Below are positions 2,979 to 22,460 of a stretch of DNA of 64,000 nucleotides, piece after piece. The DNA is from Micrococcales bacterium (GTDB lineage: Bacteria > Actinomycetota > Actinomycetes > Actinomycetales > Cellulomonadaceae): assembly GCA_009779195.1 (NCBI GenBank), contig WRET01000005.1:5568-69567 (forward strand). The letters run 5' to 3'. Under the pieces are notes generated by a model. It worked only from the letters and a program-made list of their open reading frames with translations. It searched no databases and was not told the origin of the DNA. Made by a program: the position numbers and the translations under genes. How positions within the stretch are numbered: the stretch's first letter is position 1; each line of letters opens with the position of its first letter.

Positions 2979-3613
2979 CCATGCTCACCGCTGTGCTGAT
3001 GGCCGCCGCAGCCGCGGTCCTGGTCGGGCCGTGGCGCACCCTGGGCCGGGCACAACGGTCCGCACGCGTGACCGGTCCACCACCCGACCTGGCAGCCGTC
3101 GTCGCAGGGGTCGCTGCCCGCCTGCGTGCGGGGGTCAGGGTGGGGGAGGCGTGGTCGCAGGTCCTGGGCGTCCCGGTGGGTGACGAAGGACCTGACCTGC
3201 GACAGCTGTGCACGGTGGGCGCACCGGCGTCCGCACGACCGTGGCGCACCACGCAGCCGTCCGGTGGTGCAGGCCGGGCCCAAGCAGTGGTCTGCGCCGA
3301 CCGTATGGCCACCGAGCTGGGCGCGCCGCTGGCCCCCGTGCTCGACACGGTCGCACAAGCCCTGGCCGCCGACGCCGAGGCTGAGGCCGAGCTCGGGGCG
3401 GCGCTGGCAGGTCCGCGCGCCAGTGCCAGCCTCGTCGGTTGGCTTCCAGTGTTCGGCCTGCTCCTGGGCGTGTTCGTGGGAGCCGACCCGGTGCGCGTGC
3501 TGACCGACGGCGCTCTGGGCACAGCCGCAGGCGTCGGCGGGGCTGTGCTGTTCGTCGCCGGGCGCGTGTGGTCACGGGCCCTGGTCGACCGGGCCCGCAG
3601 GTGGCAACGATGA
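2975..3613 (+). CDS. tadB: TadB-like type II secretion system F-family membrane protein
   Basis: The ATG at 2975 overlaps the tadA stop (ATGA). The protein starts with a hydrophobic stretch MTMLTAVLMAAAAAVLVGPW and has C-terminal TM helices, in the typical actinobacterial tadB position. Confidence 0.7.
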   Translation: MTMLTAVLMAAAAAVLVGPWRTLGRAQRSARVTGPPPDLAAVVAGVAARLRAGVRVGEAWSQVLGVPVGDEGPDLRQLCTVGAPASARPWRTTQPSGGAGRAQAVVCADRMATELGAPLAPVLDTVAQALAADAEAEAELGAALAGPRASASLVGWLPVFGLLLGVFVGADPVRVLTDGALGTAAGVGGAVLFVAGRVWSRALVDRARRWQR

Positions 3614-11803: not shown

Positions 11804-12955
11804 GTGACTACGCAGCTCATCGACGCTCTCCTCGGGTCCCTGGCGGACGCCGAGCAGTCGGCGCCTGCGTTGGACCTGCCAGCGGTGATGGCCAACGAGA
11901 ACGAGTGGCTGGACACCGAGACATGGGTGGGGATGGCTTTCGCCCAGGCAGTGATCGACGGCCACGAGCCGTTCACCGCTGAGGCGCCGCTGAAGCACGA
12001 CTTCGACCGCGCGCTGCTGCTGCCCGACACCGCTGTGGTCCTGCGATCGGCCACGGACCACGAGCGGCCGGAGCAGCCGTGGATCTTCGCCCGCACCCCG
12101 ACCGGGCACATCCACATCAGCCCGTCGGCCGCCACGGTCAGCGCGGCCACCGCCACCGCGGCCCGTGAGCTGCTCCAGGTGGTTGTCGACCGCATCCCCC
12201 CGGCTGTCGACACCGACGACCCCAACAAGGCCGAGGTCGAGATGTGGCAGCAGTCGGTGCACAGTGGTGGCAGCTCGCGCAGCAAGGTGATCGACGTCCC
12301 GTCATGGGCCGACGTCCAGCGCAACTACGCCACCGCCACAGGTGACCAGCTGGCCCGGCTCATGGCCAGGGGTCGCCCGTCGGACGCCTCGGGCAAGCTC
12401 ATGGTCTGGTACGGCCTGCCCGGCACCGGCAAGACCACCGCTATCCGCACCCTCATGCGCGAGTGGTCGGCGTGGTGCACCTACCACTACATCCCTGACC
12501 CCGAACAGTTCTTCAACACCGTGTCGTACATGGCTGCGGTGCTCTCCGTCGACTCCGACAACGCCGACGACGGTGAACCCATGCACCGGTTGGTCGTGGT
12601 CGAGGACTGCGACGAGTTCATCACCGCCGACGCCCGCCACCGCTCTGGCAACGCCCTGGGACGTCTGCTGAACCTGTCCGACGGGATCATGGGCCAAGGC
12701 TCGAAGGTGATCGTCCTGCTGACCACCAACGAAGACATCATGGCGTTGCACCCTGCCCTGACCCGTCCGGGCCGCTGCCTGGCCAAAGTCGAGTTCCGCC
12801 CCTTCAGCGCCGACCAGGCGCGCACCTGGCTCGACGACCCGGCCGCCAGCCTCCCCTCGTCGTCGCCCACTCTCGCCGAGCTGTTCGAGACGAAGAGCGC
12901 CACCCCCCGCATCTGCACGTCCGACGACACCCCCGCCCCCGGCCTCTACCTGTGA
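11804..12955 (+). CDS. AAA+ ATPase (classical clade) with an uncharacterised N-terminal domain of about 190 aa
   Basis: Motifs: Walker A GLPGTGKTT, Walker B LVVVEDCDEF, sensor-1 LLTTN, Arg-finger region HPALTRPGRC. Confidence 0.8.
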   Translation: MTTQLIDALLGSLADAEQSAPALDLPAVMANENEWLDTETWVGMAFAQAVIDGHEPFTAEAPLKHDFDRALLLPDTAVVLRSATDHERPEQPWIFARTPTGHIHISPSAATVSAATATAARELLQVVVDRIPPAVDTDDPNKAEVEMWQQSVHSGGSSRSKVIDVPSWADVQRNYATATGDQLARLMARGRPSDASGKLMVWYGLPGTGKTTAIRTLMREWSAWCTYHYIPDPEQFFNTVSYMAAVLSVDSDNADDGEPMHRLVVVEDCDEFITADARHRSGNALGRLLNLSDGIMGQGSKVIVLLTTNEDIMALHPALTRPGRCLAKVEFRPFSADQARTWLDDPAASLPSSSPTLAELFETKSATPRICTSDDTPAPGLYL

Positions 12956-13016
12956 GGCTCGTCGAAGGATGACGGCGTGACCGGGCTCAGCGGCCTGACC
13001 GACGGCGTCCAAGCGC

Positions 13017-14546
13017 TCACGAGCGCTTGGACGCCCACGCCTCGGACTTCGAACCTGTGACGCCACCGTCCATCCAGACGATCTTGCCCCTGGCGTCTGC
13101 GACGATATTGGCCGTGTCCTTCTCGCCGGACACCGAGACGTGGATGTGCATGGGGGTTGAGGCGCGTTTCTTGGTTTGACGCGGGTTGTCGACGTGCACC
13201 GCGGGACTGCCGTCTTTGATTCCGGTGAGCTCTTCTATCTGGGCGACGATTCCTTCGACAGATTTCCAGTCCACCGCGGTCGCGTCGAACAGCACGTCGT
13301 CACTGAGCGGCGAGTCGGCTTTGTCACGTTTGGCAAAACCGTCGCGCCAGGTGAACCGGTCGACCGTGGCCGCCCCCGGAGCCGTCGGAGCCCGAGCATA
13401 GATATGGGTCGGGTACACGTGGATATCGAAGAACCTTGGTCCGCCGGCCACTTCTACGAGGTCGTCGATCGCCTGCTGCAGGTGCTCGGTGGTCAAGAGC
13501 CCCGCAGCCGCCCACGCCTCTGATTTCGACCCCGGGGCGCCGCCGCTCATCCACACGATCTTGCCGGACGCGTCGGCGGTGATGCTCGCGGAGTGGTAGC
13601 CGTCGCTGGTGCGGACCACGAGCTTTGCCGCTGGCGACGCACCACCAGTCGTCGCACGGGTGATGTTCACAGAGGGGCGGCCGTGGACGAGCTTGGTGAG
13701 TCCTGGGACCTGCGCGACGAGCCCGGCAACCTTCCCGCAGTCCACCGTCGTGACGTCGAACAGCTCGCCGGTCGACACACGTCCCGACGCCGGACCGTCC
13801 CGCTTCGCCTGTCCGTCGCGCCAGGTGAACCTCTCGACCGTCGTGGCACCTGGGGTGGTCGGGGCCTTCGCGCTGGCGTGCGTCGAGAAAAGGTCGATCT
13901 CGAGGAACCGGTTTCCCCCAGCCGCCTTGACCAGGTCGTCGACCACCTGCGCAGCGTCGATGGAGAAGGCATCAGCAGGGACCGCCATAGACGCAGCTGG
14001 GGCCTGATCGCCTGAGCCAGGCACCGCCGCCGGTCTGGAGGTGACCCACCAGACCCCTGCGCCGGCCACGCCGCAGACCATGAGCACCGCGACGAGCACG
14101 GCGACGACACGCAGCCCCCAGGAGCGGGTCTTGGCTGGCGGTGGGCCCGGCACCACGGTGGCTTGTGGGGGCGGCGCAGGAGCGCTGTCTTGCACCGCGC
14201 TGCTGTGCGCCATGCTCGAGGTGCCAGTGATCGACTCGAGCTGGACCTGGGTGAGCGTGGTCTCCAGGTGGATGGGACCGTTCTCGCCCACCTCCAGGTA
14301 CTGCACCGAAATTTTCGTCGAGGTGGCTACCGACAGCGCCCGCCTCGCCTTCTCGGCGGCTTCGCGCAACCGCGCCCGGGCGACCGCCCGCCCCGACAGG
14401 TCCTCACCTGACTGCTTCGCCAGCTCGACGAACAAGAAGTCGACGATCCGGTCGACGTCATCGCCCGCCCTCGCGGCTCTCGCAGACGACCCCCAGGGGG
14501 CCGGACTGCCGTGTGGCTCCGGACTTGGTGGCAGCGGCGCACTCAC
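13017..14546 (-). CDS. Membrane protein: isolated Hsp70 subdomain-IIB-like segment, one TM helix, and two tandem copies of an unknown extracytoplasmic domain
   Basis: The N-terminus GDDVDRIVDFLFVELAKQSGEDLSGRAVARARLREAAEKARRALSVATSTKISVQYL...LETTLTQVQLESITG aligns with DnaK GGDDFD...LQRLKEAAEKAKIELS...LTRAKFEELT. The TM helix is LRVVAVLVAVLMVCGVAGAGVWWV. The duplicated module reads VDDLVKAAGGNRFLEIDLF...TVERFTWRDGQAKRD and IDDLVEVAGGPRFFDIHVY...TVDRFTWRDGFAKRD. Confidence 0.6.
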   Translation of the reverse strand: MSAPLPPSPEPHGSPAPWGSSARAARAGDDVDRIVDFLFVELAKQSGEDLSGRAVARARLREAAEKARRALSVATSTKISVQYLEVGENGPIHLETTLTQVQLESITGTSSMAHSSAVQDSAPAPPPQATVVPGPPPAKTRSWGLRVVAVLVAVLMVCGVAGAGVWWVTSRPAAVPGSGDQAPAASMAVPADAFSIDAAQVVDDLVKAAGGNRFLEIDLFSTHASAKAPTTPGATTVERFTWRDGQAKRDGPASGRVSTGELFDVTTVDCGKVAGLVAQVPGLTKLVHGRPSVNITRATTGGASPAAKLVVRTSDGYHSASITADASGKIVWMSGGAPGSKSEAWAAAGLLTTEHLQQAIDDLVEVAGGPRFFDIHVYPTHIYARAPTAPGAATVDRFTWRDGFAKRDKADSPLSDDVLFDATAVDWKSVEGIVAQIEELTGIKDGSPAVHVDNPRQTKKRASTPMHIHVSVSGEKDTANIVADARGKIVWMDGGVTGSKSEAWASKRS

Positions 14547-14747: not shown

Positions 14748-15299
14748 TCAGGCGGCGCCGATAAGCTCGCAGTAGGCATCCCAGGTCAGGCCGTTGCTGT
14801 CGCGCTGGGACACCACGGTGATGGGGGCGGGCCACACGACGGCGAGGGTCGGGTCGTCGTAGGAGACGGTGACGTCCTCGTCGGGACCGTAGAAGTCGTC
14901 GATGCGGTAGACGAAGTCGGTCACCGACGTCAGGGCCTGGTACCCGTGCAAGAACCCGCGCGGGATGTACACCTGGCGGCACACCTGGTCGTCGAGCAGG
15001 AACCGCGAGACCTTGCCGAACGTCGGCGAACCTGGCCGGGTGTCGATCGCCACGTCCAGCACCGCGCCGTGGGCGCACCGCACCAGCTTGGCTTCGCCCT
15101 TGTTCAACCGTCCGTGCAGGCCACGCACCACACCCTGGTACGACCGCGACTGGTTCTCCTGCTTGAACCCTGCCGGGTCGATCCCCGCGTCGGCCAGGAT
15201 CTGCACGTCTAGCGTCCTGGAGAAGTACCCCCGCTCGTCACGGTGCGGGGTTGGCTCGAACACGACGAGCCCGTCAACATCTGTTGGAATCACTCTCAC
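14748..15299 (-). CDS. dTDP-4-dehydrorhamnose 3,5-epimerase family (RmlC-like) sugar epimerase
   Basis: MRVIPTDVDGLVVFEPTPHRDERGYFSRT...QENQSRSYQGVVRGLH...KLVRCAHGAVLDVAID is a cupin-type RmlC signature. Confidence 0.9.
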   Translation of the reverse strand: MRVIPTDVDGLVVFEPTPHRDERGYFSRTLDVQILADAGIDPAGFKQENQSRSYQGVVRGLHGRLNKGEAKLVRCAHGAVLDVAIDTRPGSPTFGKVSRFLLDDQVCRQVYIPRGFLHGYQALTSVTDFVYRIDDFYGPDEDVTVSYDDPTLAVVWPAPITVVSQRDSNGLTWDAYCELIGAA

Positions 15300-15409: not shown

Positions 15410-15440
15410 GGTGGCAGCAGCATCCAGTGCTGCTGCCACC
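15410..15440 (-). terminator. Strong hairpin just downstream of rsr (13-bp perfect stem, 5-nt loop)
   Basis: GGTGGCAGCAGCA-tccag-TGCTGCTGCCACC lies 14 nt past the rsr stop and upstream of the RmlC-like gene start. Confidence 0.55.
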
Positions 15441-15453
15441 TTGCCACACCGTC

Positions 15454-17028
15454 CTAACCGCGGACGAAGTCGGACACGACGGTCGGGACCGACGCGTCGT
15501 AGCCGGCGACGTCCAGGCCCAGCTGGTCGGCCGGGTCGTTGATGGTGAACCCGGTCGACGTCAGGGCTACGACGACCGAACGGGTCTGCGGGTCGACCCG
15601 CTTGCGGTAGGTAGACACCGCCGAGGCGGTGTGCTCCTTGCCGCACCAGGTCTCGTTGTCGGTGTACGAGACGATGCCGCCGAAGGCGCGCCGGTGCGCG
15701 GACGCCCACGTCCACGGCAACGACGTGTTGGTGCCACCCATGGAGATGGCGCTGACCTTGGAGATGACCTGTGCCAGCGACATAGACGGGTCGATGGGTA
15801 CGTCCACGAGACGGTGGGAGTAGCCCATGATCGTCCAGTCGCTCTCGGTGTTGGCCGTGACCAGCGCGAGCGCTGCGGAGACCTCACGCGGGGTCAGGCC
15901 GCTAGCGTCGGCCCGCCAGCCCATCGAACCGGACACGTCCAGCGCGAGCAGGACGGGCTTGCCGATGGGCCGCACCGCACCGAACGCCGCGTAGAACCCG
16001 GCGTCCAGGGCCTGGGCCACCGCACGCACCGGCCGCCAGTCACGTCCGCCACGGCCTGCGCCCTCGGCGTAGGTACGCGCGGCGGACAGGACCGACAGCG
16101 GGTGGATCCGCGCGGCCTTGAGCCCCGCCGGGTCGGTGACCCGGGATGTGACGTGCTCGACCCATTCGGACCGCTCGTAGAGCAGGCCGATACGGGTCAG
16201 GCGCGGCAGCTGGCGTACCAGCGCACCCAGCGGCACGCCGTTGGCCAGCAGCGCTTCCCACACGGCGACGGTGCCCAGCCAGCGGTCGGGCAGCATCTCC
16301 CAGGTGATGGCACGGTTGTCGGCGACGATCGCGACCACTTCCTCAGCGGTGCCGGCCGCTGCGAGCGCCTCGAACGCGTCGACCAGGCGCGGCACGGACT
16401 CGCACCGCTCGCCGCGCAGCACCCAGCGGAACAGGGCGTTGAACGCCGGGTCCGCCGTGGACGGGTGCGCCAGGCGCAGCACGTCAGCGTGGGTCCAGCC
16501 GTCGCGCGAACGGTACTTGACCATCTGCAGGGCAGCGGCGTCCACGTCACGGGCGGTGTACCAGGAACCCAGCGCGCGGCGCAGGCCACGTCCGGTACCG
16601 CGCAGGTTCTTGGCGTAACGCGCGAACGTCAGCAGCGTCGAACCGGTCCGCGCCACCTGGGGCAGGGCGTCCAGCGCGAGGGTGCGCGCCTGGTCGTTAC
16701 CCACCGAGGCGGCCACGGCCAGCGCGAACAGGCCTGGCTGCTGCTTGGGCGCCAGACCCGCCTGCGAGGTGCGTACCACCTGCTCGACGTAGGCGACCGG
16801 GTCCCGGTCAGCCAGGCCGAGCAGGAACGCCACGTTGTCGGCCAGGTGCTCGGCCGCCCCGACGTAGTACGTCCCGGCGGGCGCACCCAAGGTGAGGAAC
16901 CGCTGCAGACGTGCCGCGTCGTCGGTGCTGTACACGTACCCGCCAGCATTGTTGACAACCTGCCGCGGGTCGGTGCGGACCATCTGCGTCGGCTTCCGCT
17001 GCACAGTGCCGTAGATGTCAGTCGTCAT
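15454..17028 (-). CDS. rsr: Ro 60-kDa autoantigen orthologue (Rsr): TROVE domain plus vWA/MIDAS domain
   Basis: The N-terminus VNNAGGYVYSTDDAARLQRFLTLGAPAGTYY is TROVE-like. The C-terminal vWA domain has the MIDAS motif LALDVSGSMG. The protein is 524 aa and a good RBS (GAAGGGGA) precedes the ATG. Confidence 0.85.
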   Translation of the reverse strand: MTTDIYGTVQRKPTQMVRTDPRQVVNNAGGYVYSTDDAARLQRFLTLGAPAGTYYVGAAEHLADNVAFLLGLADRDPVAYVEQVVRTSQAGLAPKQQPGLFALAVAASVGNDQARTLALDALPQVARTGSTLLTFARYAKNLRGTGRGLRRALGSWYTARDVDAAALQMVKYRSRDGWTHADVLRLAHPSTADPAFNALFRWVLRGERCESVPRLVDAFEALAAAGTAEEVVAIVADNRAITWEMLPDRWLGTVAVWEALLANGVPLGALVRQLPRLTRIGLLYERSEWVEHVTSRVTDPAGLKAARIHPLSVLSAARTYAEGAGRGGRDWRPVRAVAQALDAGFYAAFGAVRPIGKPVLLALDVSGSMGWRADASGLTPREVSAALALVTANTESDWTIMGYSHRLVDVPIDPSMSLAQVISKVSAISMGGTNTSLPWTWASAHRRAFGGIVSYTDNETWCGKEHTASAVSTYRKRVDPQTRSVVVALTSTGFTINDPADQLGLDVAGYDASVPTVVSDFVRG

Positions 17029-17058
17029 GATGATGTCCCCTTCCCGGGTCAGGTGTCA

Positions 17059-17224
17059 CCTGGACGACAGGACGGTGGCAGACAAGGGACAGCCCCGGAA
17101 TTGTGCTGCTCTACCAGCTGAGCTACGCCAACCTTTCAGCCGACGGCAGGACTCGAACCTGCGACCCGCCCATTAACAGTGGATAACCGAAAGCTTTCGG
17201 CCCGCCACCGTCCTGTCGACCAGG
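17059..17224 (-). ncRNA. yrlA: Y RNA (YrlA-like) with a circularly permuted tRNA-like module
   Basis: A 21-bp closing helix pairs 17224-17204 with 17079-17059, with one U-U mismatch. Inside it lie a T-arm GCAGG/UUCGAGU/CCUGC (17162-17146), a 7-bp acceptor-like stem CGUCGGC/GUUGGCG with loop UGAAAG (17145-17126), UA, and a D-arm GCUC/AGCUGGUA/GAGC (17123-17108). The RNA sits about 30 nt upstream of rsr on the same strand. Confidence 0.75.
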
Positions 17225-17340
17225 CGACGCGGATAAGTGTGTGGAAGCCGGAAAGCCCCTGACGACCAGGGCGCATGGCGCGCAATGGTCGGGGCATCTC
17301 TCGATAGGATAACCGACGTCCTTCGACCCGCGTCTTCCGG
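17220..17340 (-). ncRNA. Possible second structured RNA or leader segment upstream of the Y RNA
   Basis: CCGGAAGACGCGG (17340-17328) can pair with CCGCGUCGCCUGG (17232-17220), 11 of 13 positions. Internal hairpins include CCCUG-GUCGU-CAGGG and GCGC-GCCAU-GCGC. GGUUAUCC is shared with the Y RNA. There is no coding signal. Confidence 0.3.
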
Positions 17341-17350
17341 GTCTGTGACG

Positions 17351-17380
17351 ACCTTACGCGGGGCACCCGTGGCGGCCCAA
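17351..17380 (-). promoter_or_regulatory. Candidate sigma-70-type promoter for the Y RNA-rsr transcript
   Basis: The minus strand reads TTGGGC-N18-TAAGGT. It would start transcription a few nt before the structured region. Confidence 0.35.
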
Positions 17381-17433
17381 GCGTTTTTCTGGGGCGTTCT
17401 GGGCCGTGCGCCAGGGTGCTACCGTCTGCGGGT

Positions 17434-18336
17434 ATGGGTGCCGACACCTCTGGTGAGCACGACGCCTGGGACCTGGCGCAAACCGTCCGGGACCTCCAGG
17501 TGCGGGTCGCAGCGCTCGAAGCGGCCATGGCACGCGTGCCCGGCGGCGACCACCAGGTCGACAGCACCGTTGCGGCCTGGGGTACGCCGAGCAGGCCCGA
17601 CGCACGTCTTGTGGCGCTCGAAGATGCCGTGACCCGTCTTGGTGGCGAGGCCCGGGCCAACGACCAGGACGAGTGGCTCGGGGACTACCAGACCCGTGTT
17701 CCGGCGACCGTCGGCGAGGTGGCGCAGGTGTGCAACCGGATCGCTGGGTCGTGGTCGTCGACCTGGTCGTCCCCGGTCGTCCTGTCTGGTATCGAGTGGT
17801 GGGTGCTGGACGTGGTGCGCGACGAGACTGGCCACCGGGCGTTGCTGTTGTCTGACCGGGTGGTCACCCAATGCCCGTACCACAAGGACGAGTCCGATAT
17901 CACCTGGGAGCTCAGCGACCTACGTCGCTGGCTGAACAACGTGTTCGGCTGGACGTTAGGCATGCCGTTGGTCTTGCGCGTGGTGACGTCGAAGCTGACC
18001 AACGAACCCAACCTGGTCTGGGACACCGCCGGGGGGAACGACACGGCCGACAAGTTCTTCCTCCTCAGCATGCAAGAAGCCGTGGAGTACCTGGGGAAAG
18101 ACAAGTACGTCAGCTGGGAGAGAATCCGGAAACAGGGATACTACGAGCTGGGCGAGCGAGGAGCAGCGAGGAGCGACGACGGCGAGAGAACGTTGTGGTG
18201 GCTACGTTCCCCGGGCCGCTACCCCAACCACGCCGCAGCCGTCTTCCCCAACGGTGTCCTCCCCGGCTTCGGTCGCGTAGCCCACGAGCCCTCCGGAGGC
18301 GTACGCCCAGCCTTCTGGCTGAACCTCCAACCCTGA
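17434..18336 (+). CDS. Hypothetical protein with an N-terminal coiled-coil and a C-terminal DUF6273-like domain
   Basis: IEWWVLDV...ALLLSDRV, WELSDLRRWLNN, FFLLSMQEA and WWLRSPG...GVRPAFWLNL match the pattern I associate with DUF6273. G+C is visibly lower than in the neighbours. The start could also be 17416. Confidence 0.55.
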   Translation: MGADTSGEHDAWDLAQTVRDLQVRVAALEAAMARVPGGDHQVDSTVAAWGTPSRPDARLVALEDAVTRLGGEARANDQDEWLGDYQTRVPATVGEVAQVCNRIAGSWSSTWSSPVVLSGIEWWVLDVVRDETGHRALLLSDRVVTQCPYHKDESDITWELSDLRRWLNNVFGWTLGMPLVLRVVTSKLTNEPNLVWDTAGGNDTADKFFLLSMQEAVEYLGKDKYVSWERIRKQGYYELGERGAARSDDGERTLWWLRSPGRYPNHAAAVFPNGVLPGFGRVAHEPSGGVRPAFWLNLQP

Positions 18337-19287: not shown

Positions 19288-20349
19288 CTACGCGGGTGGG
19301 GGCGTGAGGTATTCGGCGACTTGGGTCCGGGTGGCGTCCAGGGGGGTGGTGCCTGAGCGGACGGACTGTTCCCAGGTGACGACTTTGGACAAGGCGGTGG
19401 TGACGTCCCAGGCGGGGGACCAGGCGAGGTCGGTGCGGGCCCGGGCGGAGTCGAGCATGAGCAGGCCCGCTTCGTGGGGGCCTTGGTGCTCGTCGGAACA
19501 CCACGAGGCGTTGTCGCCCCAGGCCGTCGCCAGACGGGTGGCTACTTCGCCGACGGTCAGCGCGTCGTCGGTGGCAGGGCCGAAGTTCCAGGCCGTGGCG
19601 TGACGGTCGGGGGTCAGGTGCTCGGCCAAGGTGAGATAGCCGGAGAGGGGTTCGAGGACGTGCTGCCACGGGCGGACTGCTGCCGGACGCCGCAGGACTG
19701 CTTGGCGCCCAGACGCGTACGCACCGACGAGCTCGGGCATGAGCGCTTCGGGGGTGGCGTCGCCGCCTCCGACGACATTGCCGGCCCTGGCTGTGGCGAC
19801 CGCGTAGCCTTCGCGCGGGAACGACACGGCCATGGAGTGGGCGACGATCTCCGCAGCAGCCTTGGACGCTGAGTACGGGTCGTCGCCGCCGAGGCGGTCA
19901 GTCTCCCTGTAACCCCACACCCACTCGTTGTTGAAGTACACCTTGTCGGTCGTGACCACGACGCACCGGGTCACACCAGGGACGTCCCGGCACGCCTGGA
20001 GGACAGAAAATGTGCCCATGACGTTGCTGGAGAACGCCTCGTGGGGGTCGTCGTACGACTCGCGCACGACGGTCTGCGCGGCCAGGTGCAGCACCACCTG
20101 CGCCCCGGACGCGGCGATAGCCTCACGCAGGACGGCGGTGTCGCGGATGTCGGCCCGTTGGTCGGTGGCGACCAGCGACCCCAGACCCGCCCGGTTGTAC
20201 AGGTAGTGCTCGGGGGTGTCCAGGGCGTACCCGTGCACCTGCGCGCCCAGCGCGTCGAGCAGGACGCACAACCACGCGCCTTTGAACCCTGTGTGCCCTG
20301 TGACGAACACCGGGCGGCCTGACCAGAATGACGTGTCCACGGCACACAC
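19288..20349 (-). CDS. rfbG: CDP-glucose 4,6-dehydratase
   Basis: FWSGRPVFVTGHTGFKGAWLCVLLDALGAQVHGYAL and YSASKAAAEIV (YxxxK) are present. Length is 353 aa. Confidence 0.9.
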   Translation of the reverse strand: MCAVDTSFWSGRPVFVTGHTGFKGAWLCVLLDALGAQVHGYALDTPEHYLYNRAGLGSLVATDQRADIRDTAVLREAIAASGAQVVLHLAAQTVVRESYDDPHEAFSSNVMGTFSVLQACRDVPGVTRCVVVTTDKVYFNNEWVWGYRETDRLGGDDPYSASKAAAEIVAHSMAVSFPREGYAVATARAGNVVGGGDATPEALMPELVGAYASGRQAVLRRPAAVRPWQHVLEPLSGYLTLAEHLTPDRHATAWNFGPATDDALTVGEVATRLATAWGDNASWCSDEHQGPHEAGLLMLDSARARTDLAWSPAWDVTTALSKVVTWEQSVRSGTTPLDATRTQVAEYLTPPPA

Positions 20350-20357
20350 CGTACCGT

Positions 20358-22460
20358 TCAGGCGTCGTCGGACGCGTCAGTGTCCAGGTACAGCTCGCGC
20401 TCGACGCGGGCAGGGCCTGCCAGGTACAGGTGCAGGCGTGAACGGGTGCCGTGGCGGACCAGCAGCCGGGCGGCGGAACCGACAACACCCATGGCGCGGG
20501 CCACGGCCCAGCGGCGGTCGCCCAGGTGCTTGCGGTAGTACTTCTCCAAGGACCCGTGCAGGTGGGCTTCGTAACGTTCCGGGTCGCTACGTGTGGTGGC
20601 ACCGCCGGTGTGGCGGGTCACCACGTCGTGGACCAAGACGTTGCGCCAACCGCGTTGGCGGGCACGGTAGGCCCAGTCGGCGTCCTCGAAGTACAGGAAG
20701 TAACGTTCGTCCAGCCCGCCGACGTCTGCCAGGGCGTCAGCACGCAGGAAGTCCACCCCGCACGCGACGAAGCAGCGCGAGCGTCGGGCAGGAAGGCGGC
20801 CCAGCCCGATGTTCTCCAGGAAGAAGCGTCCCAGCGAGGGGAAGGGCCAGGTGGCACGTGGTGGTGACAGGTCACCTTCTTCGATCTCGCACGGTCCGAC
20901 GAGCGCTGTGCGTGGGTCGGCGTGCGCGGCGCGCTGGAGGGCGACAACGTCGTCGAACAGCACTTCGGCGTCGGAGTTCAGCAAGATCACGTCAGCGTCG
21001 GGGCACTGGCGGTGTGCGAGCCCGTCGTTGACCCCGGCGGCGAAACCCAGGCCCCGGCCTTCGACGTACTGCGCACCAACGGCTTCGGCGACCTCACGGA
21101 TCTCGGGCAGGCGCGAGTTGTCGACGACGATCAGCGAGATCTTGCCTGCCAGGGGGGCCAGCACCGTGCGGACCATCTCTGGGTGGCGGTACGCCACGAC
21201 GATGCCCTCAGGCAGCGGCGGGTCGGGCGGTTCTGGCACTGTGACAAGGCCGAGCACCCGGCGGTACAGGTCGCCGTTCGCCGTGGCGACCGAGTCCCAC
21301 GAGCACCGGGCGGCCACAGGGAACCCACGCTCGCGCAGTGTCGCAGCCAGCTCTGGGTCGTCGACGACCTGGCGCAACGCGGCACCGAGCGCTTCGACGT
21401 CACCAGGTGGCACGAGGATCCCCGCGTCGCCGACCACGTCAGGCAGCGCACCAGAGCTGGAGGCGACGACAGGGGCCCCGCAGGCCATGGCCTCGACCGC
21501 GACCCGTCCGAACTGCTCCACCCACCCTTGGCCTGGACGTGACCCGTGCGTGGCGTCCAACGACGGGACGGCCAGCACGTCGATGCTGCGGTAGAACTCC
21601 ACGAGCTCGGGCTCGCCCAGCGACCCCAGGAAGGTGATGCGCTCACCTGCTGCGGCGGCCAGCTCGCGCAGCTCGTCTTCGTCCGGTCCGCCTCCGGCGA
21701 TGCGCAAAGTGAGGCTCTCGTCGGCCAGGACGGCCTTGACCAGCACGTCCACGCCTTTGTGCTCGACCAGACGCCCGGCGTACCCCACAGTGCGCGACGG
21801 TGTGCGTCCGTCGGGCCCGGGTGTGAACACCGACAGGTCCACTCCCAGCGGGATGTTGACCACCGGGCCGCCGGCTCCTTTGCGCTTGCAGATCGACACG
21901 GCTTGGTCGTTGCACACCGACACCCCCGCAGACCGGCGCAGCGCCCTGCGTTCCAGCGTCGAGAAGGGCCACGGGTACCACTTGAAGATGTTCTGCGCCG
22001 ACGAGACCAGGTAGGGCGCGTGCGAACGGCGCCCGCGCAGGCGGTCCCAACCGCGGCGCAAGGCGCGCAGCGCGAGGATCTCAGCGGTGACCAGGGCGTA
22101 CGGTTCCTGCTGGATATCGAGCAGGTCGTGGGGGCGTCCCAACGCCCGCCACAAAGGTCCGGGTGCGAACAAGAACAGGGCGGGGTGCGAGCCGATGGTC
22201 CGCACACCTTGGACCGGTTCGCCGGGGCGCGGCTCGAGCGCGACGACACGGCCGCCTTCGTCCCACGCCTTCGCGCACAGCAGGTCCACGTCGAGCCCCT
22301 GGGTACGCATGACACGTTCGCCCTCGCGCCAAGCGTCGACGACTGCGCTGTGGGAGATCCTCAACACCTTCATGGGTGCCCCAGTGTAGCTTTCACCCGC
22401 AGGTGCATCGGCCACTGGTGGCTCTCCCGTCGAGGTGGGTGGTTGCGTCTTGTCCGTCAC
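20358..22460 (-). CDS. Bifunctional glycosyltransferase (N-terminal GT4, C-terminal GT2)
   Basis: The N-terminal half reads MKVLRISHS...GRLVEHKGVDVLV...EQFGRVAVEAMACGAPVVAS (GT4 E-x7-E region). The C-terminal half reads IVVDNSRL...LNSDAEV...FLYFEDADWAYRAR (GT2). The GTG at 22460 overlaps the ATP-grasp stop. An alternative ATG is at 22373. Confidence 0.8.
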   Translation of the reverse strand: MTDKTQPPTSTGEPPVADAPAGESYTGAPMKVLRISHSAVVDAWREGERVMRTQGLDVDLLCAKAWDEGGRVVALEPRPGEPVQGVRTIGSHPALFLFAPGPLWRALGRPHDLLDIQQEPYALVTAEILALRALRRGWDRLRGRRSHAPYLVSSAQNIFKWYPWPFSTLERRALRRSAGVSVCNDQAVSICKRKGAGGPVVNIPLGVDLSVFTPGPDGRTPSRTVGYAGRLVEHKGVDVLVKAVLADESLTLRIAGGGPDEDELRELAAAAGERITFLGSLGEPELVEFYRSIDVLAVPSLDATHGSRPGQGWVEQFGRVAVEAMACGAPVVASSSGALPDVVGDAGILVPPGDVEALGAALRQVVDDPELAATLRERGFPVAARCSWDSVATANGDLYRRVLGLVTVPEPPDPPLPEGIVVAYRHPEMVRTVLAPLAGKISLIVVDNSRLPEIREVAEAVGAQYVEGRGLGFAAGVNDGLAHRQCPDADVILLNSDAEVLFDDVVALQRAAHADPRTALVGPCEIEEGDLSPPRATWPFPSLGRFFLENIGLGRLPARRSRCFVACGVDFLRADALADVGGLDERYFLYFEDADWAYRARQRGWRNVLVHDVVTRHTGGATTRSDPERYEAHLHGSLEKYYRKHLGDRRWAVARAMGVVGSAARLLVRHGTRSRLHLYLAGPARVERELYLDTDASDDA

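Follow-up and report, generated by a model that had tools for sequence, protein, structure and literature searches.

A predicted YrlA-family Y RNA directly upstream of the Ro60 orthologue gene rsr in an actinobacterial contig

Bacterial Y RNAs of the YrlA family have been described as circularly permuted tRNAs, and a dimeric tRNA transcript has been proposed as their origin (bioRxiv 10.1101/312249). The published definition (PMC4201824) comprises the sequence GNCGAAN0-1G (the proposed Ro60 recognition motif); a YUAY tetranucleotide; the V, T, AS (acceptor-like) and D stem-loops in that order, with the V stem-loop 5′ of the T arm in most members; a T stem-loop (GGUUCGAnUCC) lying 5′ of a D stem-loop (UAGCUCAnnnGGnAGAGC), both near-invariant; a UA linker; a Levitt pair; and a location on the same strand as a Ro60/TROVE gene, within 4 kb of it. 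Family members are further characterized as stable RNAs that Rsr binds in vivo and that undergo TruB/DusA modification or RNase P cleavage. Actinobacterial members have been known since 2014: Gordonia polyisoprenivorans, Streptosporangium roseum and Mycobacterium smegmatis, as well as mycobacteriophage ET08, are listed (PMC4201824; Chen et al. 2014, RNA 20:1715), and the M. smegmatis RNA, upstream of rsr, is experimentally validated; in that species the Y RNAs are co-transcribed upstream of rsr and processed into stable Rsr-bound species (PMC4201824). Here we analyzed a 64,000-nt stretch of contig WRET01000005.1 from a Micrococcales bacterium (the window), in which an inspection of the letters alone (the sequence-only reading) had pointed to a YrlA-like RNA at 17059-17224 on the minus strand, next to rsr. 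We conclude with high confidence that 17224-17059 encodes a YrlA-family Y RNA, the predicted non-coding partner of the Rsr protein encoded downstream. Since both the published definition and the published actinobacterial members match, the RNA counts as a further member of an already described family, not as a new kind, and the locus leaves the known concept of bacterial Ro-Y RNA ribonucleoproteins unchanged.

The RNA is 166 nt long as bounded by its closing helix (minus strand; RNA position 1 is 17224), and its 3′ end lies 30 nt before the rsr start codon (ATG at 17028) on the same strand, as the sequence-only reading had estimated; the sequences quoted in that reading were all found at their minus-strand coordinates, including the 21-bp helix with its mismatch, the T arm, the acceptor-like stem, the UA, and the D arm. 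In the closing helix, CCUGGUCGACAGGACGGUGGC (17224-17204) pairs with GCCACCGUCCUGUCGUCCAGG (17079-17059) over 21 bp, including a single U-U mismatch (17219 facing 17064). The helix runs four pairs further inward, making 25 bp in total (17224-17200 with 17083-17059; RNA 1-25 with 142-166), which we call P1, and it could also be lengthened outward by 4 bp. The Ro motif, GCCGAAAG (17194-17201; RNA 24-31; GNCGAAAG in its short form), occupies the 5′ side of an internal loop, and is followed by a second helix, P2, in which AGC(U)UUCGG, with one bulged U (17187-17195; RNA 30-38), pairs with CCGGGGCU (17091-17098; RNA 127-134). The long stem had been taken as the Ro-binding element; the 21-bp stem is real, but the conserved Ro60 motif lies just inside the 21 bp and not within them. 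A small local hairpin (GGCCGAAAGCUUUCGG) proposed in the same reading had to be given up: the Ro motif makes up the 5′ half of the supposed hairpin, the 3′ half is the P2 strand that pairs with 17098-17091, and this long-range helix covaries across loci and is predicted by RNAalifold.

Between the two strands of P2 we find, in order, UUAU (the conserved YUAY; 17183-17186; RNA 39-42); the V arm, CCA-CUGUUAA-UGG, with 3 bp and a 7-nt anticodon-like loop (17170-17182; RNA 43-55), which was absent from the earlier list of elements; the dinucleotide G-C (17169-17168) followed by GGGUC (17167-17163; RNA 56-62 for both), the latter corresponding to tRNA positions 44-48; the T arm, GCAGG-UUCGAGU-CCUGC (17146-17162; RNA 63-79); the acceptor-like stem-loop (AS), CGUCGGC-UGAAAG-GUUGGCG, with 7 bp, three of them G-U (17126-17145; RNA 80-99); the UA linker, as U8 and A9 (17124-17125; RNA 100-101); and the D arm, GCUC-AGCUGGUA-GAGC (17108-17123; RNA 102-117), with A118 at tRNA position 26. 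The G-C at 17169-17168 pairs with the G-C at 17106-17105 (RNA 56-57 with 119-120); this 2-bp helix is an anticodon-stem analogue (tRNA 42-43 with 27-28), and the Rfam YrlA model has it as its closing helix. Judged from its letters, the RNA has all the nucleotides for the elbow and core tertiary pairs of a tRNA (G15:C48, U8/A14, G18G19/U55C56, A9, G45, and G46). Sequence and covariation together show P1, the motif-bearing internal loop and P2 as one module, the putative Ro60-binding module, and P2 as opening into a permuted tRNA-shaped module. The YrlA-type identity and the circular permutation claimed earlier were borne out: all of the sequence and structure features of PMC4201824 are present, and the order of the arms matches the description of YrlA in the literature (bioRxiv 10.1101/312249). 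In addition, UUAUCCACUGUUAAUGGGCGGGUC of the window, in the YUAY and V arm, aligns with UUACCACUUCUAAUGGAAUGGUC, which is complementary to the 5′ probe for the M. smegmatis RNA.

Standard tools miss the element, as had been foreseen for tRNA finders: ARAGORN called 0 tRNAs and 0 tmRNAs in the whole window, and Rfam at gathering score gave 0 matches in it. A permissive local Rfam scan of 16900-17500 returned YrlA (RF02553) as its best match (35.1 bits, E = 5.9e-6; model positions 24-84 of 114, the T/AS/D core); the covariance-model scan suggested earlier thus recovers the proposed family, but below its gathering threshold of 69 bits. The loci of a Gordonia metagenome-assembled genome (MAG), Propionibacteriaceae, and Micrococcales likewise reach only 34-42 bits with this model; the 69-bit cutoff is a curated value, not a biological feature, and shuts out the actinobacterial YrlA branch as a whole. 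The Rfam tRNA model reads 17206-17141 as D-like, anticodon, and T arms at 23.8 bits, under its cutoff of 29; with this score, an acceptor stem capped by a loop, and no ARAGORN call, the RNA is not a canonical tRNA.

For comparison, rsr loci were fetched from genomes (10) and metagenomes (50). The closest relatives are L001, from a MAG labelled Micrococcales, and L012, whose Rsr proteins are 84% and 86% identical to that of the window, respectively, in keeping with the earlier assignment of this DNA to an actinobacterium. Nine sequences were aligned with plain MAFFT (alignment A1), on which RNAalifold was run and from which a covariance model, R1, was built (matches counted at E ≤ 0.01); the R1 matches gave a second alignment, A2, of 48 distinct sequences, which is fitted to R1. 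A second model, R2, was built from 16 sequences without the window, L001, and L012, to escape circularity. R2 scores 17212-17071 at 116 bits (E = 1.7e-23), its sole strong match in the 64 kb; the one other significant match is an adjacent candidate Y RNA, Y-B (see below), and R1 and R2 found no further YrlA copy in the window. With R1 we obtained 62 matches, spread over 34 of the 49 loci in which the rsr 5′ end is covered, and every match is on the rsr strand; 60 are upstream of rsr and two (L033 and L034) just downstream. Loci of Gordonia, Frankiaceae, Propionibacteriaceae, and Micrococcales carry the same element upstream of rsr, and two actinophages have it as well. Such RNAs are overlooked beside rsr in annotation, and a dedicated covariance model finds them cleanly.

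RNAalifold on A1 independently yields P1, P2, and both the T and the D arms, and of the 35 pairs that it predicts 18 are compensated; many T- and D-arm columns are invariant in A1, and the block that bears the Ro motif (GGGCCGAAG) is conserved there as well. In A2, 93.5% of cells are paired, vs. 70.2% in shuffles (0 of 500 reach the observed value) and 36-45% in slid controls; double changes occur in 36 of 38 pairs, and the covariation score is 0.448 vs. 0.144. For P2, double changes are seen in all nine pairs (92.7% of cells paired), for example GACGGUCGG/CCGGUCGUC in L008, GGGCAUCGG/CCGGUGUCC in L025, and GACGUUCGG/UCGGACGUC in L001; the V arm is paired in 98.9% of cells, with double changes present, and the two pairs of the anticodon-stem analogue are kept in 97.6%, with 9 and 19 double changes. 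Since A2 is fitted to its model, we also relied on the RNAalifold result, on the retention of AS, and on the Levitt pair. A hairpin of 3-8 bp and unrelated sequence (for example CGGAGUC/GGCUCCG in L008) stands in the AS position in nearly all homologues with a T arm and a D arm, and the Levitt pair 15:48 covaries (G:C in 9 of 26 homologues, A:U in 14).

The expectation that the structure would be conserved upstream of rsr orthologues held for these helices, which covary, but not for P1a (the outer 15 nt of P1; CCUGGUCGACAGGAC), which is present only in the window, L001, and L012; P1 measures 4-19 bp in the other loci and 29-31 bp in the window clade when its outward extension is included. Two P1a pairs show compensatory changes: pair 1 is C-G in the window and U-A in L001 and L012, and pair 9 is A-U in the window and G-C in a second L001 copy. 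We considered whether P1a (GGUCGACAG) might be another Ro60 motif, but L001 (GGUCGCCAG) has not kept the motif positions, and the idea is a mere possibility. The makeup of the Ro-binding module (P1, GNCGAA loop, and P2) becomes clearer from the comparative set.

The gene downstream is a Ro60 orthologue, as had been claimed: rsr (15454-17028, minus strand) encodes 524 aa with matches to PF25045 (vWA_Ro60, 3.3e-49) and PF05731 (TROVE, 1e-32), that is, the TROVE HEAT-repeat ring followed by a C-terminal vWA domain by which Ro60 is recognized. Its product shares 48% identity with a protein that is annotated as “Ro-like RNA binding protein” in Microbacterium phage FuzzBuster. A Shine-Dalgarno-like sequence, GGAAGGGG, can be read at 17037-17044 (minus strand), and a promoter-like site lies upstream of Y-B at 17351-17380 (minus strand; −35 TTGGGC at 17380-17375, an 18-nt spacer, and −10 TAAGGT at 17356-17351). 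Its hexamers and 18-nt spacing are conserved in the relatives while the spacer sequence varies (TTGGGC-N18-TAGGGT in L012, TTGAGC-N18-TAGGGT in L001, and TTGCTG-N18-TAGGGT in a second L001 cassette). A strict sigma-70 scan did not call this site; the only call it made, 17059-17030 (GTGACA-18-CATCAT), overlaps the ribosome-binding site and the start codon and was rejected as spurious. Scans found no promoter or terminator between Y-B, YrlA, and rsr, and a scan for U-tract terminators found none; a 13-bp GC-rich hairpin without a U tract (15410-15440, minus strand), 14 nt after the rsr stop codon, is a candidate terminator. The promoter/Y-B/YrlA/rsr cassette is compact, with an unusually long terminal duplex.

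The closest described counterparts are the YrlA RNAs of M. smegmatis and other actinobacteria, which share with the window RNA the location upstream of rsr on the same strand, the motif, the YUAY, the V arm (CCA-CUnnnAA-UGG), the T arm, a 7-bp AS, the UA, and the D arm; the M. smegmatis RNA is also similar in size (∼147 nt vs. 166 nt) and shares its precursor region with a second Y RNA. The window RNA differs from the actinobacterial ones in its basal stem, which has 25 bp (up to 29), while the stems of the other loci examined have 4-19 bp. The second Y RNA is upstream of YrlA in the window, whereas M. smegmatis has it between YrlA and rsr, as phage FuzzBuster apparently does. Salmonella Typhimurium YrlA (RF02553), for which the crystal structure PDB 6CU1 is cited in bioRxiv 10.1101/312249, has the same permuted tRNA-like module with a capped acceptor stem, the same T and D arm sequences, the UA linker, the nucleotides of the tertiary pairs, and a Ro-binding module formed from the RNA ends. 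However, it is located 3′ of rsr in an rsr-yrlBA-rtcBA operon under RtcR control, and has a 6-bp AS but neither a V hairpin nor an anticodon loop; in the window, rsr has no rtcBA genes beside it.

More distant are Deinococcus radiodurans Yrn1 and the metazoan Y RNAs, which likewise combine a Ro60-bound terminal helix with an effector-binding module. The GGUCCGA-like recognition motif is also shared; P1a of the window even reads CUGGUCGA, and the U-U mismatch of P1 lies near the site of the metazoan bulged C. In Yrn1, by contrast, the T-like and D-like elements are in the opposite order and a full D arm is missing; a tRNA-like domain is absent from metazoan Y RNAs. Circularly permuted tRNA genes (Cyanidioschyzon, other algae, and one archaeon) also place the T arm before the D arm and join the acceptor ends by a short loop, but they yield functional tRNAs through a circular intermediate, whereas YrlA keeps a Ro-binding stem at the anticodon side and is not known to decode.

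Two actinophage records contain YrlA copies that are unannotated. In FuzzBuster (MN062720; L061), YrlA is at 3002-3141 (108 bits), ∼160 nt upstream of the annotated Ro-like gene, with a module-only match at 3229-3300 (24 bits), also upstream of that gene. In Mycobacterium phage Phabba (L062), YrlA is at 2983-3116 (83 bits), in a gap of the tRNA array.

Several points weigh against a separate YrlA RNA at this locus. Besides the Rfam score, about half of the gathering threshold, there is the fold itself: the minimum free energy structure of the 166-nt stretch (-88 kcal/mol, z = -5.9; 0 of 200 shuffles as stable) keeps P1, P2, the T arm, and AS and rearranges the V and D arms, and the comparative structure, all of whose pairs are canonical (-78.1 kcal/mol), is 10 kcal/mol less stable by nearest-neighbor rules. 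Because no terminator separates YrlA from rsr, a discrete stable RNA needs processing, and both the promoter and the terminator are putative, as are the steps ascribed to RNase III and RNase P. The element might instead act in cis, as a structured 5′ leader of the rsr mRNA (an autoregulatory operator for Rsr, or a processing or stability element), with no separate Y RNA. The short distance to the rsr ATG would suit such a role, as would the single conserved promoter-like site, upstream of Y-B, with neither a terminator nor an independent promoter after it, and the 25-29-bp duplex that abuts the ribosome-binding region. However, the M. smegmatis equivalents are co-transcribed too, yet are processed to stable Rsr-bound RNAs (PMC4201824); the leader position is not required, as the element is downstream of rsr in L033 and L034 and an extra L001 copy is 1.7 kb away; and a tRNA elbow conserved down to its tertiary pairs would be needless for a simple operator. 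We regard a leader without a separate RNA as rather unlikely, and roles in cis and in trans are compatible with each other.

A decaying and functionless remnant of tandem tRNA genes (the 3′ part of one and the 5′ part of the next), beside rsr by accident, would account for the sub-threshold tRNA match at 17206-17141 (23.8 vs. 29 bits) and would agree with the published derivation of YrlA from a dimeric tRNA transcript (bioRxiv 10.1101/312249). Yet ARAGORN finds no tRNA in the 64 kb, the “spacer” between the two parts is just the 6-nt loop that caps the stem, and covariation of the helices and the tertiary pair extends over phyla and phages, in every case together with rsr and on its strand; this covariation with constant rsr linkage indicates purifying selection on the permuted structure, and makes a remnant very improbable. 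Stable hairpins are frequent in high-GC genomes, and R1 has weak palindromic matches at several other sites in the window, but the idea of a chance GC-rich palindrome in a high-GC intergenic region is refuted by the R2 match (E = 1.7e-23) and the strong covariation, with the folding z-score of -5.9 pointing the same way, and we give it practically no weight.

For the YrlA-type RNA that we favor, the sequence, the conserved structure, and the linkage to rsr are shown directly; its mode of action we infer from published systems (PMC4201824; bioRxiv 10.1101/312249). Y-B, YrlA, and rsr are probably made as one transcript from the promoter-like site at ∼17380-17351 and then processed. The 25-29-bp P1 duplex would be a plausible RNase III site, and RNase P could plausibly act at the 7-bp acceptor-like stem, as it does in the YrlA of M. 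smegmatis, where a 7-bp AS stacked on the T arm is the feature that makes the RNA an RNase P substrate. By analogy with D. radiodurans, Salmonella, and M. smegmatis, Rsr would bind the P1/motif region and the RNA would gate its central cavity. The tRNA-like module may tether Rsr to an effector, either PNPase, as in the studied systems (RYPER), or a tRNA-elbow-binding protein, and such tethering would direct the degradation or repair of structured or damaged RNA.

Directly upstream of YrlA, a previously unflagged YrlB-like element, Y-B, was identified at 17226-17334 (minus strand). Its P1 is formed by GACGCGGGU (17334-17326) and AUCCGCGUC (17234-17226), followed by the motif GUCGAAG (GNCGAAG; 17327-17321), a P2 of GGACGUCGG (17321-17313) and CCGGCUUCC (17251-17243), and UUAU (17312-17309), all on the minus strand; where YrlA has its tRNA-like domain, Y-B has an interior (17308-17252) that is not conserved. 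In the model alignment only the Ro-binding module is matched, with 54 unrelated nt where the tRNA-like domain is expected. R1, with filters off, matches 17338-17222 (26.5 bits, E = 4.5e-4), and R2 gives Y-B 32.6 bits (E = 2.3e-5 over the full 64 kb). Orthologues are found in both relatives (L012:774-953, 37 bits; L001:2690-2791, 30.7 bits); both ends are kept, the interiors differ in length and sequence, and P2 has one compensatory change, from A-U to C-G. The single-sequence fold of Y-B is not significant (z = -1.7), so we rate Y-B as probably, not demonstrably, a second Y-like RNA with a shared Ro-binding module, on the strength of the model matches and the conservation. Module-only matches accompany YrlA in Propionibacteriaceae loci and in FuzzBuster as well.

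Like YrlB of Salmonella and M. smegmatis, Y-B would be a smaller second RNA of the rsr locus that lies in tandem with YrlA and bears a GNCGAA-type motif in the stem between its two ends, and the Y-B and YrlA pair appears to parallel the YrlA and YrlB pairs of these two species. YrlB forms no sequence family across taxa, and Y-B is assigned only by the Ro-binding module that it shares; a possible T arm is present in the YrlB of M. smegmatis, whereas none is seen in Y-B. The sequence GCGUC(G) between Y-B and YrlA (window 17225-17228, with equivalents in L001 and L012) has two alternative partners: the 5′ end of Y-B (as in Y-B P1), or 17055-17058 on the 3′ side of YrlA, which would lengthen YrlA P1 to 29-31 bp. 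An outward extension of YrlA P1 would compete with the 3′ strand of Y-B P1; the two pairings are mutually exclusive and could order the processing.

The number of Y RNA units differs among loci. A second complete promoter/Y-B/YrlA cassette is found in L001 (1010-1320), 1.7 kb upstream of rsr, and in this extra copy (L001:1046-1320) the U-U mismatch of P1a recurs; a single cassette is present in the window. Three to four tandem Y RNAs lie directly upstream of rsr in L002:2365-2935, L013:2014-2432, and similar Propionibacteriaceae loci, and these arrays mix YrlA-type and module-only RNAs.

The V arm invites a further reading. The literature describes YrlA as lacking an anticodon loop and calls the V hairpin a variable arm (PMC4201824; bioRxiv 10.1101/312249). 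In the window RNA the V hairpin directly adjoins the 2-bp anticodon-stem analogue, 0 nt separating the two, and the V loop is 7 nt long in 20 of 27 sequences, among which C32 is found in 16, U33 in 18, R37 in 17, and A38 in 15. A tentative and rather unlikely proposal is that the tRNA mimic in this YrlA branch is complete, with the V hairpin and the 2-bp helix making up a split 5-bp anticodon arm with the 7-nt loop CUGUUAA, and the Ro module inserted between tRNA positions 28 and 29. This proposal fits the dimeric-tRNA origin model and the sub-threshold tRNA match at 17206-17141. If true, such an RNA, which also has a 7-bp acceptor stem, could engage factors that recognize a tRNA as a whole, for example synthetases, EF-Tu, the ribosome, or anticodon nucleases. 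The comparative set suggests that the V arm is a relic or a mimic of an anticodon arm.

A related form was observed in the MAG of an uncultured proteobacterium (L009:1246-2146; same contig as L030), with three to four tandem RNAs of ∼125 nt upstream of rsr; similar RNAs occur in L031 and L032, and in L005:63-185 (Brevefilum). These RNAs score 45-54 bits with the Rfam tRNA model, above its cutoff, yet none is called by ARAGORN. Their acceptor stem is open and has 7 bp (ACCA is encoded in one copy), their D and T arms are YrlA-style, and the anticodon arm contains an insertion of 57-64 nt that reads as a loop-capped YrlA Ro-binding module (GCCCUU-CUCG-AAGGGC, then CGACG, a P2-like helix, and CUUAUC). 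Going by their sequence, they would be an exact circular permutation of YrlA, an “unpermuted” Y RNA of tRNA topology, which fits the dimeric-tRNA origin; no description of this form was found in the literature searched. The R1 match at L031:851-1114 spans two adjacent units.

The window matches an 85-kb contig of metagenomic origin (ENA ERZ27257295). The surroundings agree with the glycan gene cluster noted earlier: RmlC is encoded at 14748-15299 (minus strand), an NDP-sugar epimerase/dehydratase at 19288-20349 (minus strand), and a GT1/GT2 fusion at 20358-22460 (minus strand), with a DUF6273 protein at 17416-18336 (plus strand). A 509-aa open reading frame (13017-14546, minus strand) has a weak partial Hsp70 match only (3.5e-10), and a paralogous or related stretch is found inside the Y RNA region of L001 (L001:1700-2620). 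At its 3′ end there is a perfect GC-rich palindromic hairpin (13004-13035; GGCGUCCAAGCGC ... GCGCUUGGACGCC), which is probably the terminator of this frame, and beside it lies a gene for a DUF5925 and AAA ATPase protein (11804-12955, plus strand).

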